Assembly: GCF_046119375.1 (NCBI RefSeq)
Contig: NW_027362763.1
Location: forward strand, 108,128,001-108,192,000
Direction of reading: 5' to 3'
DNA from: Phyllobates terribilis
Taxonomy: Eukaryota
DNA: 64,000 nucleotides
Shown one piece after another: positions 14,731 through 20,171 of the stretch (the stretch's first letter is position 1; every line of letters starts with the position of its first letter). A program made the translations under genes and the position numbers. The notes under the pieces were generated by a model. It did no database searches. It worked only from the letters and a program-made list of their open reading frames with translations, and was not told the origin of the DNA.

Positions 14731-15850
14731 TATGGCGCCCCTGCGGGTTCAGTCGCAACACATTCCACTTCAGTGGGGGCAGGGCGAGATTGCTCCTGAG
14801 GGAGAGCACAGTCCCTGGTCCCTAGCTGGAGGGTGGAACCATGTAGTGGGTGTGGGTGGAGGACATAGTTTAGGGGAGCACTTCAGTAGGTGTATAAAAA
14901 GGGGAGCCATCTTGAAAAGTGTGGTCAGTCTGCAGTGAGAGGAGTTGGGAGCAGGAGCTCAGCAGGAGCTCTGCTCAGGAAGAGGGCCTAGAGAGAGGCC
15001 CAGGACCGACTGAAGGAGAGAGGAGCAAGAAGGAAGGCTTCAGGAGGAACGAGGGTATCCTAGGGGTACGGGCAGTGCTGGAGGCCACCCGTACGCCCGA
15101 ATCTGCAGGAACGTGGAAGGATCAAGCTGCAGAGGGAACAGGCCCCTAAACTACTGGAGAACTACAAGGCTTAGCTAGAAACCGGAGGCTTCTGTACTGT
15201 TAGGGTGCAGTTGCCACAGCCACAATTACATCGCCAAAAAGGTGGCCACAGAGGGTTCAGGGGACTGCAGGTAGCCCGACAAGACCCGAGGCTACCGGCT
15301 TGGGACACTGATTGTGAGGCGCAGGGCAGGAGGGTGAGAGCCAGCGCAGAGAGAAGGCACACAGAAGGAGGTCCCGTTAAGTGCCCTTGAATTACTTGAG
15401 GGATTGCTGAACCCCTCCCTGAGTAAGCACAGGACAACGTGGGAAGTTACACCGGTACCTGTAACTTGGATTGCAACAACTGTGAGTAAACTCTGAAGAC
15501 TGCACCCCACTGTCTCTGCGAATTACTACTGCGCCATCACCCCTGCACTACACAGCAACATCCATAACAACTCTGCACAGCCCTGGAGCTAAGCTCAACC
15601 TGTGGAGAGCTAAACCAACTCTGCTGCATTTACACCAGCTCCAGAGGACCTGCTCCGCAGCGGCGGCTCCCTTTAGCCGCATACCACAGGTGGCGTCACG
15701 AACTCTATACAAGAACTATAAATACCCTGTAAATAATATCCCCATTTGATTGACCGTCCTGGGTCACGGACCGGGTCACCGCCACTGTGACATCTCCCCT
15801 GGCAACGACCGACCGGGCACCGAGTACCCCACGGCCCAGGGGGCGTGTCA
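14731..15850 (+). mobile_element. 5' LTR of a Gypsy-group element
   Basis: Starts t(a/g)tggcgcccc and ends gggggcgtgtca. Homologous to the reverse-oriented LTRs at 24966-27309 and 43429-44707. TATA-like gtataaaaag at ~14892. Confidence 0.88.
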
Positions 15851-15853
15851 ACT

Positions 15854-15871
15854 TGGCATCACAAACAGGAT
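15854..15871 (+). promoter_or_regulatory. Primer-binding site complementary to the tRNA-Ser(CGA) 3' end
   Basis: TGGCATCACAAACAGGAT lies 3 nt after the LTR. It is a 16/18 match to the complement of the vertebrate tRNA-Ser(CGA) end ...ATCCTGTTCGTGACG-CCA (recalled sequence). Both mismatches are G>A at CpG. Confidence 0.8.
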
Positions 15872-16067
15872 ATGAACCCACTCATTATCACCGGGTATTG
15901 TGCGCCTAGAGACTGTGTTCTATACTGAATGTGGCGCCCGCCCGAGAAGAACGGGCGCCATTAGGTGCGAGACCAAAGACAACAAGAAACCACCTCCCAT
16001 CGTGGGCCGGGTTCCAGAATGGCGCCAAAAGTGGAACCTGCCCCGAGCATCAGTGACCATGTATGTA

Positions 16068-17700
16068 CAGTGGTGGCCAAAAGTATTGGCACTCCTGCAA
16101 TTCTATCAGATAATACTCAGTTTCTTCCTGAAAATGATTGCAATCACAAATTCTTTGGTATTATTCGCTTCATTTAATTTGCTTGCAAGGAAAACACACA
16201 AAAGAGAATGAAGCAAAAATCAAATCATTGATCATTTCACACAAAACTCCAAAAATGGGCCAGACAAAAGTATTGGCACCCTCAGCCTAATACTTGGTTG
16301 CACAACCTTTAGACAAAATAACTGCGAACAACCGCTTCCGGTAACCATCAATGAGTTTCTTACAATGCTCTGCTGGAATTGTAGACCATTCTTTTTTGGC
16401 AAACTGCTCCAGGTCCCTGATATTTGAAAGGTGTCTTCTCCAAACTGCCATTTTGAGATCTCTCCACAGGTGTTCTATGGGATTCAGATCTGGACTCATT
16501 GCTGGCCACCTTAGAAGTCTCCAGTGCTTTCTCTCAAACCATTTTATAGTGCTTTTGGAAGTGTGTTTGGGGTCATTGTCCTGCTGGAAGACCCATGACC
16601 TCTGAGGGAGACCCAGCTTTCTCACACTGGGCCCTACATTATGCTGCAAAATTTGTTGGTAGTCTTCAGACTTCATAATGCCATGCACACGGTCAAGCAG
16701 TCCAGAGCCAGAGGCAGCAAAGCAACCCCAAAACATCAGGGAACCTCCGCCATGTTTGACTGTAGGGACCGTGTTGTTTTCTTTGAATGCCTCTTTTTTT
16801 TCCTGTACACTCTATGTTGATTCTTTTTCCCAAAAAGCTCTACTTTTGTCTCATCTGACCAGAGAACATTCTTCCAAAACGTTTTAGGCTTTCTCAGGTA
16901 AGTTTTGGCAACCTCCAGCCTGGCTTTTTTATGTCTCGGGGTAAAAAGTGGGGTCTTCCTGGGTATCCTACCATACAATCCCTTTTCATTCAGATGCCGA
17001 CTGATAGTACGGGTTGACACTGTTGTACCCTCGGACTGCAGGGCAGCTTGAACTTGTTTGGATGTTAGTCGAGGTTCTTTATCCATCATCCGCACAATCT
17101 TGCGTTGAAATCTCTCGTCAATTTTTCTTTTTCGTCCACATCTAGGGAGGTTAGCCACAGTGCCAGGGGCTTTAAACTTCTTGATGACACTGCGCACGGA
17201 AGACACAGGAACATTCAGGTCTTTGGAGATGGACTTGTAGCCTTGAGATTGCTCATGCTTCCTCACAATTTGGTTTCTCAAGTCCTCAGACAGTTCTTTG
17301 GTCTTTTCTTTTCTCCATGCTCAATGTGGTACACACAAGGACACAGGACAGAGGTTGAGTCAACTTTAATCCATGTTAACTGGCTGCAAGTGTGATTTAG
17401 TTATTGCCAACACCTGTTAGGTGCCACAGGTAAGTTACAGGTGCTGTTAATTACACGAATTAGAGAAGCATCACATGATTTTTCAAACAGTGCCAATACT
17501 TTTGTCCACCCCATTTTTTAGGTTTGGTGTGGAATTATATCTAATTTGGCTTTAGGACAATTATTTTTGTGTTTTTTCATTGAAGACAAATTAAATGAAG
17601 ATAATAATACCAAAGAATTTGTGATTGCAATCATTTTCAGGAAGAAACTGAGTATTATCTGACAGAATTGCAGGGGTGCCAATACTTTTGGCCACTACTG
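16068..17700 (-). mobile_element. Tc1-like DNA transposon, full length (1633 bp), inserted into the LTR element
   Basis: TA TSD at 16066-67 and 17701-02; ~200-bp inverted termini beginning CAGTGGTGGCCAAAAGTATTGGCAC. Confidence 0.97.
16287..17318 (-). pseudogene. Tc1 DD34E transposase, frameshifted
   Basis: ORFs 16736-17281 and 16287-16736 carry [15 protein letters not shown] and SPDLNPIE, with 34 residues between D and E. Frameshifts near the ATG (17318) and near the T-run at ~16790. Confidence 0.95.
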
Positions 17701-17852
17701 TAGATGTATCCATCAAGCTGGGGGGGCCGCTCCAAGGTGTGTTCGACAGCAAGTTGCCATGGAACCGCCCCCGAAAGGGGAGAGGAGAGAAGAAACCTGG
17801 GAGACAGGGCGGAGTCTCCAGCAGTCTAAATAGACCACACCCGGCAGGCAAT

Positions 17853-18987
17853 ATGGAGAGAGGACAGCCTGAAGCTCCGGCTTGTGGTCTGCAGCCCGCA
17901 GCAGAACCCCTCACTGTGGAGGGGATGCTAGCCAAGTTGTCTCTGGAGGACACCAGTTTCATCCGGGACGAAATGCAAGGACTGGGCAGGAGGATGGAAG
18001 AGGCCAAGCGAGCTGCGATTGCTGCCTGGAGGGCAGAGCTGATGGAGAAGTTGGTGACCTGGCAGCAGTCAGCACTGCAAGTGACCAGCAGAGCCACAGC
18101 CCCGGTGGAGCCTGACCAGAACCGGGAGGCAGCGTGCAGCACAGGAGCATCCGCGGGAGCAGGTAAGAGAAGACTCCCTATCCTGGGCGCTGAAAGCGCT
18201 GACCTGCTCCTGGGCCCCCTGTCGGAACCTCCGTACCCGGGCGCGCATGCGCCCGCTCAGCTCCTGGTTCCGGAGCCTTCTACCCCGGGTACTAGTGAAG
18301 AAGACCTGCTCCTAGGCCCCCTTCAAAAGCCATCAGCCCCCACACCCGAATGGGTGTATGGACGTGCGGTCTGGGACTGGTCCGCGGAGGTGAAGACCGT
18401 AACCTCCCGCTGTTACCCGCTCCTGAGTCATCTCCGGGAGGGAAGAGGATCAGTTCCTGTGGGATAACCCTGGGGGGGACCTCATGGGGTTTCCCCGGGA
18501 AACCAGAGCAGAGGCTGTGCGCCGGGTAGAGCACTGCAAGAGGGAGCTGGCGCAGCTGGAAAAAGAGCGGCACCTCCGGCGGGTGAGCTGGAAGAGACTA
18601 GAGGCCCGGAACATGGAGGAGAAGGCCCGGGCCTGCAAAAATAAAGAAGCTGCACATGGTCCCCGTGCCGAAGGGACTGTGGTGAAGTTTAACCTGGATG
18701 GAGGATAGGGATTCATCTGGGATCCATATACCGAGATGGATCTCTTTGTCAACAGGAGGGACGTGGAGTCCCACCTAAAAGAAGGACATCCGGACTGGAA
18801 TCTCTACCCCGGTGATCACGTCACCTACACCAGGCATAGAGGTAAGAGGGGCTGGTATGCCCTGAATGTCCACAGGGTGGTGGAGGAGAGCGAACCCTCA
18901 CCTTCTGGAGCTGATGACATCCGGCTAGGCCAGCCTATAGTGGACAGGAGTTGTTTCCCCAGAGGAAGCACCACTACTAAGCAGTAG
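17853..18987 (+). pseudogene. LTR-element internal ORF: coiled-coil segments plus a C-terminal cold-shock domain (one frameshift, one in-frame stop)
   Basis: 18670-18870 reads EGTVVKFNLDGG*GFIWDPYTEMDLFVNRRDVESHLKEGHPDWNLYPGDHVTYTRHRGKRGWYALNV, fitting the CSD pattern (GTVKWFN..KGFGFI...DVFVH...GD.V.F...G.KG..A.NV). ORFs 18484 and 18736 share a frame. A frameshift at ~18425-18465 links them to ORF 17676. Confidence 0.75.
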
Positions 18988-20171
18988 GTGGAACTGTACT
19001 GTATATAGTTAGTTACCCGGAAGGGTACAGCAGAGACACTGCAAGTTGAAAACCCATGCTACTACCAATATTTGTCTATAGAGATTACATGGCTGTGTGC
19101 TTGATTTTTTGCACCGGTTTTAATGCGATTAGGCTGAAACTTCTGAATTCAGTAAGAGAAAGCTTCACATGCATAAAACCCCGATTCATGATTGCATTTG
19201 CGCCTATTTTTGTCTAGTTTTGTATATTATGACCTTGTTTTTCTCTTGAGCCTCATGCTTCTTATAGTTTGCGCTTTTTTTAAAGTCTATTTTATATACA
19301 GTATGATTGCCTGTTTTTTTCTTATGTTCACTATAGTGGGCAATGTTTGTGATTTCCAAAAGTTTCGGGCTGATTCATAAATTGCAACTTTTAAAAAAAA
19401 CAAAAATGCAAAATTTGGTGCACATTCCACCCTGGAGTAGTTTTGAGTACACCAGGTGTTTTGGCCAATTTTTTTTGCTGCATTTTGCGAAATGTGCAAC
19501 TTTTTGAGCTAAAAAGTCACAAAAACAGTTAGACGGAAGAAAGAGAATTTTTTTTTACTTTACTCAAAATTCATGAACAGAGTGCGCCATTTTGAACAAT
19601 TGGCTCAAAAAATGTCAATAAATACGACAAAATAAGGAAATAAAAAGACATGAAAAAAAATAGTGCAATAGTAATGAAACATTACAATACCGGTACATGA
19701 GTAGCTGCATCTGTATATGGACCAGAAGAGGATCATGATGGCCACACAAGTAAAGGTGCCACTGAATATTACATATTGTAGAGTATTCTTTGTGTTTGGT
19801 GCAGGTGAGATTTATGGGAACAGGTGAATCGAAGCGTCACGTCCACAAAATATCAGTAATGCAAAGTAAATACTTGTAAATACACATATAAAACGTGCCA
19901 ATCAAATATTTACCAACCAAATATATGATGAGGATCGCGAGATGACGGGTGCAGACACATCCCCATAGTTACCCAACGTAGCACATGCTGACGTGAGTCA
20001 CCTAGACATCGTCGTGATCCACATGTGCCATGTAAGGAGCCAGCTACTCGTCTGCAGGTGTCGTAATGTGTCATTTACATTTGACTATGTATATATACCT
20101 CTCCTATATGGCCTGTGTGACTGATGTCCTGATGAAGGTCTCTGAGCAAAATGCATGTTGGGGTGAGGAGC

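Follow-up and report, generated by a model that had tools for sequence, protein, structure and literature searches.

We analysed a 64,000-nt stretch of the genome of the poison frog Phyllobates terribilis (contig NW_027362763.1, positions 108,128,001 to 108,192,000, forward strand; hereafter the window) and found that it carries a dead copy of a non-autonomous long terminal repeat (LTR) retrotransposon family. The only open reading frame (ORF) of the family encodes a protein of ~480–610 residues with a cold-shock domain (CSD) at its end, and this domain is under purifying selection between subfamilies. The parts of the window copy are as follows.

14731..15850, plus strand: 5′ LTR, whose ends agree with the termini of two-LTR copies
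15854..15871, plus strand: primer-binding site (PBS) for tRNA-Ser(CGA), 16/18 matches
15963..16067, plus strand: 5′ portion of the family ORF, with the usual start site of the family mutated
16068..17700, minus strand: Tc1/mariner insertion with inverted ends, a TA duplication and a disrupted transposase
17701..18980, plus strand: remainder of the family ORF, with three frameshifts and one stop
17910..18075, plus strand: N-terminal helical segment, a short helix and a predicted helix of ~40 residues
18460..18640, plus strand: conserved W-x7-MGF-x2-ET motif and a predicted 45-residue charged helix
18670..18876, plus strand: CSD, a five-strand oligonucleotide/oligosaccharide-binding (OB) fold, with a stop in RNP1
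18981..19047, plus strand: start of the 3′ untranslated region (UTR); the remaining 3′ UTR, the polypurine tract (PPT) and the 3′ LTR are gone

Of the hallmarks of an LTR element, the window copy retains only the 5′ LTR and the PBS. The LTR is 87–88% identical to both LTRs of copy L028, is ~100 bp shorter than those of close two-LTR copies and has a mutated first dinucleotide. The PBS is complementary to the CCA-extended 3′ end of a tRNA-Ser(CGA) gene from this genome, with two mismatches in the window copy, while the PBS of other family copies is the exact complement. These two features, the inserted Tc1, a TAG in RNP1 (at 18706–18708) and a 3′ truncation (the likeness to the family stops at ~19030–19047) had all been called by an original prediction made from the sequence of the window, and all of them stand. 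The same prediction placed the ORF at 17853–18987, downstream of the Tc1 and with one frameshift. The frame is real, but in stop-free copies it reaches ~85 codons farther upstream, to a Met that maps to ~15963 in the window; the Tc1 thus interrupts the coding region. Furthermore, 18987 belongs to an out-of-frame stop, the family ORF ending at 18980, and comparison with unbroken copies reveals three frame-breaking indels, near 18391, 18425 and 18918. The Gypsy element at 33.6–38.8 kb of the window was considered as the lost 3′ half of the CSD element and rejected, since it lies on the opposite strand and has its own LTRs.

The family is abundant. A degenerate DNA pattern for the RNP1–RNP2 stretch has 27,428 exact matches in the genome (control, 0), an exact LTR-end-plus-PBS pattern occurs 1,849 times (reversed control, 0), and a protein search of the genome returned 36,870 first-look candidates, 150 of which were scored. 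Of the 58 CSD-centred loci that we inspected, 20 resemble the window copy closely, 18 came from the Pfam search and the pattern list supplied the other 20 (12 chosen for unusual motifs and 8 spread along the list). The layout is LTR, PBS, one ORF, PPT and LTR, with a total length of ~4.6–5.0 kb, except for one rearranged copy of 4.1 kb. Twenty-three copies have two long LTR matches, with internal parts of 2.0–2.55 kb and LTR identities of 88–100%, and 20 of these 23 are flanked by an exact 4-bp target duplication, as in insertion of the integrase type. The LTRs of two-LTR copies near the subfamily of the window are ~95% identical, and those of subfamilies such as L039–L046 and L100–L107 are 99.4–100% identical (99.8–100% in some copies), indicating that the family was mobile very recently. 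The family uses two primer types, one being tRNA-Ser(CGA), verified against the genome, and the other presumably tRNA-Ser(AGA). None of the 58 CSD-centred loci showed gag or pol in the interval from the CSD ORF to the LTR ends of the element itself, and the same absence holds for the seven CSD-type loci among 20 primer-site loci. The pol matches that do occur in CSD loci belong to separate insertions or to targets that the CSD element inserted into. We also noted that CSD elements often sit within the pol of helper-type Gypsy elements (L056, L085, L086, L091 and L098; helpers are described below). Contigs from two studies (four runs, type unrecorded) cover 30 of 30 bins of the young copy L041, and they are evidence neither for nor against expression.

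The ORF encodes a coherent protein. Twenty stop-free natural frames can be aligned from a Met shortly after the PBS, kept in 19 of them, to a common end, and a single frame is held despite numerous length changes. Window positions 18670–18876, with X at the stop, match Pfam PF00313 with an E-value of 6.5e-6 and 26.4 bits, 0.6 bit below the curated cut-off of 27 bits. Four of six unbroken natural copies exceed the cut-off (29.9–39.4 bits) and two fall under it (20.7 and 22.6 bits); of the 150 best genome matches to PF00313, 142 are element-type rows, every one over the cut-off. The AlphaFold2 model of copy L014 (mean pLDDT 76.6) shows a 45-residue helix that leads into a five-strand barrel. Its best Foldseek matches are CspA, CspB and the YBX1 CSD, with TM scores, normalised by target, of 0.87–0.89 to CspA/CspB and 0.80 to the YBX1 CSD. 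The element CSDs keep RNP1 GWGFI, RNP2 DxFV and the aromatic positions of both motifs but have other residues in place of the strand-1 Trp and the RNP2 His; the protein is predicted to bind RNA. The CSD first recognised in the sequence alone is borne out by profile, fold and structural matches. Of the two outcomes named beforehand as fatal to the prediction, no CSD match and ORF copies unlinked to the LTR and PBS, neither occurred.

No Pfam capsid, knuckle, protease or reverse transcriptase (RT) match was found in the ORF, either in the window or in natural copies, in agreement with what had been read from the window alone. A Gag origin of the ORF was rejected, as no Pfam Gag match was found and profile comparison with the helper Gag gave a probability of 0.1%. 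The N-terminal helices match no Pfam family, no PDB sequence better than E 0.015 and no fold; the two coiled coils of the original prediction are predicted as long helices, and that label has been corrected. ESM Atlas matches to the protein score under 0.8 and serve as a lead only.

The ratio of nonsynonymous to synonymous substitution rates (dN/dS), estimated from pairwise Nei–Gojobori counts on the 20 stop-free copies in six subfamilies, differs along the protein. In comparisons between subfamilies, it is 0.08–0.29 for the CSD, with four of four bootstrap intervals below 0.4, 0.09–0.34 for the motif and helix before the CSD, 0.14–0.44 for the N-terminal helices, 0.33–0.87 for the first 85 codons, i.e. 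weak constraint, and 0.47–1.40 for the linker. The comparison among copies that had been suggested thus reveals a CSD under purifying selection.

By its architecture the family is an LTR retrotransposon, with paired TG...CA LTRs, PBS, PPT and short target duplications. It behaves as a non-autonomous partner of Gypsy elements, lacking pol and having cis signals in common with an autonomous family, and it does not fit the neighbouring definitions. Specifically, it lacks the gag, protease, RT, RNase H and integrase of an autonomous Ty3/Gypsy element; its interior is one long ORF under purifying selection and not the non-coding interior of a terminal-repeat retrotransposon in miniature (TRIM) or a large retrotransposon derivative (LARD); and the ORF is not the Gag of a terminal-repeat retrotransposon with a GAG domain (TR-GAG).

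Among 20 loci taken at even steps of the LTR–PBS list, 13 lead into gag-pol and seven into CSD-type sequence, and none has gag-pol and CSD within one element. The partner Gypsy elements are ~8 kb long, with LTRs of ~1.0 kb, a PNMA-like Gag of ~330 aa and a Pol of 1389 aa, and contain a CCHC knuckle, protease, RT, RNase H and integrase; no CSD was found in L059–L064. They share with the CSD elements the termini and both tRNA-Ser primer sites, and the two agree at 64–84% in the 3′ third of the LTR, at up to 92% in the ~60 nt after the PBS and at 74–83% in blocks of the 3′ UTR. On these sequence grounds, Gypsy elements with the PNMA-like Gag are likely the helpers of the CSD family. The locus architecture and shared cis signals also support the original description of a non-autonomous Gypsy derivative with a CSD in place of gag-pol.

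The window itself holds related sequences, all on the minus strand. At 33629–38830, a helper-type Gypsy element retains RT, RNase H and integrase; its partial 5′ LTR abuts the RT directly, gag and protease being missing. Two LTRs of the group to which the CSD-element LTRs belong are also present, a solo LTR at 43429–44707, ~70–74% alike to CSD-element LTRs and with matching 4-bp flanks, and at 24965–27309 a fragmented LTR broken up by other sequence.

A derived subfamily, represented by L073 and L081, joins the two element types. It has a 1.6-kb internal part in which the first ~40 gag codons are joined to the last strand of the CSD, and after this comes a second, repeated CSD end. The junction occurs 112 times in the genome (control, 0), which is a minimum for the copies of the chimera; the parental motif has 560 matches. 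The simplest reading of the chimera would be a template switch between RNAs of the helper and of the CSD element that were packaged together.

Relatives of the protein are named from poison frogs only, in three genera. When 1.84 billion representatives were searched with a profile, the best 150 matches included six single-stretch ones, from Phyllobates terribilis, Ranitomeya variabilis, R. imitator or Anomaloglossus baeobatrachus, mostly 'uncharacterized'. A second profile search brought four others, again from these genera; all are known from protein sequence. Word-based searches gave no homologue: one with a single copy returned 462 candidates, none at E 0.001, and one with alignment A2 (47–177 aa) returned 446, none at 1e-8. 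Only profile searches recovered the relatives. Occurrence in both poison-frog families suggests, on the divergence that we assume for them, that the family is tens of millions of years old. Four public gene models (P0152–P0155) fuse the element ORF to R3HCC1-like, Harbinger-type transposase-like (PF13359) or PF02854 sequence, and these fusions could be annotation artefacts or real exonisation.

Compared with solved structures, a broad profile of the element CSD scores 43.5 bits with YB-1, up to 38.7 bits with bacterial Csp, 24.1 with CARHSP1, 22.8 with LIN28 and 21.1 with CSDE1, and a Y-box protein would be the most likely donor. The element CSD shares the fold, RNP1 and RNP2 with YBX1/YBX2, and its loop after RNP2 is closest in length to that of Y-box proteins. 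It differs from them in being only ~28% identical, in lacking the strand-1 Trp, the RNP2 His and the Y-box tail, and in having a long helix before the domain; with its best-scoring relative at 28–29% identity and no Y-box tail, it does not belong to the Y-box family proper. CARHSP1/CSDC2, LIN28, CSDE1 and bacterial Csp have this fold and both RNP motifs as well. In the CARHSP1-like gene of this genome, similarity covers the stretch leading into the CSD and the domain's first half (22.0 bits) but not its second half (1.3 bits), and CARHSP1/CSDC2 is a possible donor; LIN28 first halves score 8–9 bits and CSDE1 repeats 5–12 bits. A CSD tree of 31 rows places the 24 element-type CSDs together (99/99), at the end of a long branch; as it includes no vertebrate CSD, it is uninformative on the donor. 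In the same genome, L057 and L058 (G000:C1:734.43–734.45 Mb) are intronless, partly duplicated CSDE1 copies broken up by retroelement sequence, and a spliced CSDE1-like gene lies near L037/L038.

We favour, with moderate confidence, a model in which the protein boosts the protection or packaging of RNA, acting mainly in cis, while the family is copied by the Gag, RT and integrase of the partner Gypsy elements. Element RNA would be transcribed from the 5′ LTR, translated and then bound by its own CSD product; the helper Gag would package it, a tRNA-Ser would prime reverse transcription within the helper particle, and the helper integrase would insert the copy. The protein would improve the survival of its own RNA or its entry into helper particles. 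A preference for its own RNA is proposed because a protein serving all RNAs equally is unlikely to stay conserved in many non-autonomous lineages, and a booster rather than a strict requirement because a derivative without most of the CSD has also spread. Protection of element RNA in the germ line, as originally suggested, is conceivable and would lie close to this model. In HIV, YB-1 depletion is reported to lower virion production through viral RNA metabolism (PMC6040738). A bolder version is that of a protein-coding satellite retrotransposon, in which an element without gag or pol uses a captured, remodelled CSD adaptor to steer its own RNA into helper capsids, has diversified over tens of millions of years and has been among the drivers of poison-frog genome growth; we entertain it tentatively and think it somewhat more apt to fail than to hold.

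Several observations weigh against the favoured model. The strand-1 Trp and the RNP2 His of YB-1/Csp proteins are replaced in the element CSDs, and the RNA-binding surface is therefore altered; several Arg, one His and one Tyr are conserved instead. The CSD-poor chimera, with its 112 junctions, and the internally deleted copies L068, L069 and L078 indicate that an RNA lacking an intact CSD can be mobilised or once was. The chimera could alternatively be an internal deletion of an unseen element with both gag and a CSD ORF, and some loci lack one LTR, so that the absence of pol is certain for two-LTR copies only. In addition, the dN/dS ratios are pairwise values from stop-free copies only, and dS is near saturation between distant subfamilies, saturated pairs yielding no value.

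The spread of CSD-poor derivatives would also be expected if the protein served the helper Gypsy in trans as an accessory, in a two-part system where particle assembly or RNA export is boosted for helper and CSD element alike. The cis signals shared with several helper families and the lack of a CSD in the sampled helpers are consistent with such a system. A purely shared benefit should, however, favour copies without the ORF, yet the ORF is conserved in every subfamily comparison, and the single cheater family that was counted is small (112 versus 27,428); we regard this explanation as unlikely. The same problem of a benefit in trans, unless the protein acts locally on its own RNA, faces the proposal that the protein works against silencing by the host, or in competition with CSD proteins of the host (masking of mRNA by Y-box proteins in oocytes, small-RNA pathways), and has no part in packaging. 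Y-box proteins are the best-scoring solved relatives, a host factor might bind the short conserved motif, which lies in a disordered region, and Gypsy RNA is reported to be abundant in ova of Oophaga, another poison frog (PMC6278860). We consider this proposal quite improbable.

The remaining explanations fare worse. That the CSD is a nucleocapsid substitute, which anneals the tRNA and chaperones strand transfer in the particle, would suit the basic helices of the protein and the fact that CSDs are single-stranded nucleic-acid chaperones. However, the CSD is not fused to a capsid and has no similarity to Gag, and the helper Gag keeps its own CCHC knuckle; this role, suggested for tRNA annealing by the original prediction, has no advantage over the others, and we judge it very unlikely. 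A non-functional passenger, i.e. a captured host fragment held open by GC content or RNA structure, might account for the weak constraint in the N-terminal segment and linker and for the many broken copies. Against it stand the low dN/dS of the CSD at high dS, the one open frame common to six subfamilies despite many length changes, and the homologues in three frog genera; it is already largely refuted and scarcely credible.

Parts of the system have precedents. A helical region combined with RNA binding serves the element's own RNA in LINE-1 ORF1p and hepatitis delta antigen, which differ from the CSD element in fold and element class and with which we claim no homology. TRIM, LARD and TR-GAG elements are non-coding or retain gag or remnants of the domains of their parent, as these classes are commonly defined, in contrast to the frog family, which encodes a non-Gag protein under selection and lives in a vertebrate host. 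Non-autonomous LTR classes are well known in plants; they resemble the frog family in having LTRs, PBS, PPT and target duplications without pol, and in template switching and chimeras (PMC13570524). The helpers are close in size to Barthez1/2 (7.6–7.9 kb, LTR 1.0–1.1 kb, Gag 355–359, Pol 1339–1394) and have a PNMA-like Gag, the clade name being a lead from size resemblance (PMC11117352). In bird endogenous retroviruses (ERVs), PF00313 is reported in 46 ERVs, with repeated capture (PMC12287698). These too are LTR retroelements carrying the domain, but as there described they are retroviruses that have core genes of their own and occur in few copies (PMC12287698), whereas in the frog family the CSD gene is the sole gene of an element that probably depends on Gypsy, exists in more than 27,000 copies and is under measured purifying selection. 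The phrase 'cold shock' is absent from the main text of PMC6278860 and PMC11152451. CSD capture by LTR elements is therefore already published; the combination seen here, in which a CSD gene forms the entire cargo of a non-autonomous element, was not found in the searched literature, to which Repbase, Dfam, subscription journals and supplements did not belong.

Elsewhere in the window, a second Tc1-like element, internally deleted and with 170-bp inverted ends, lies at ~20350–21470. Broken frames at 55906–59524 on the plus strand resemble a hAT transposase, and positions 59540–64000 are a tandem array of ~32 copies of a 133-bp unit, mostly 95–98% alike.

The significance of these results rests with the family, the window copy being dead. 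If every one of the 27,428 copies had the full length of ~4.8 kb, they would amount to up to ~130 Mb (roughly 1.2% of the assembly), and annotation based on RT would miss them. The usual description of non-autonomous LTR elements is of parasites that are non-coding or encode Gag only; a non-Gag protein kept by selection across many lineages hints at a means, so far undescribed, of competing for helper particles or of surviving in oocytes. Together with the bird ERVs, the frog family suggests that CSD capture is a recurring move of retroelements, and its young intact copies, old copies and CSD-poor cheater lineage make the reason for that capture testable.

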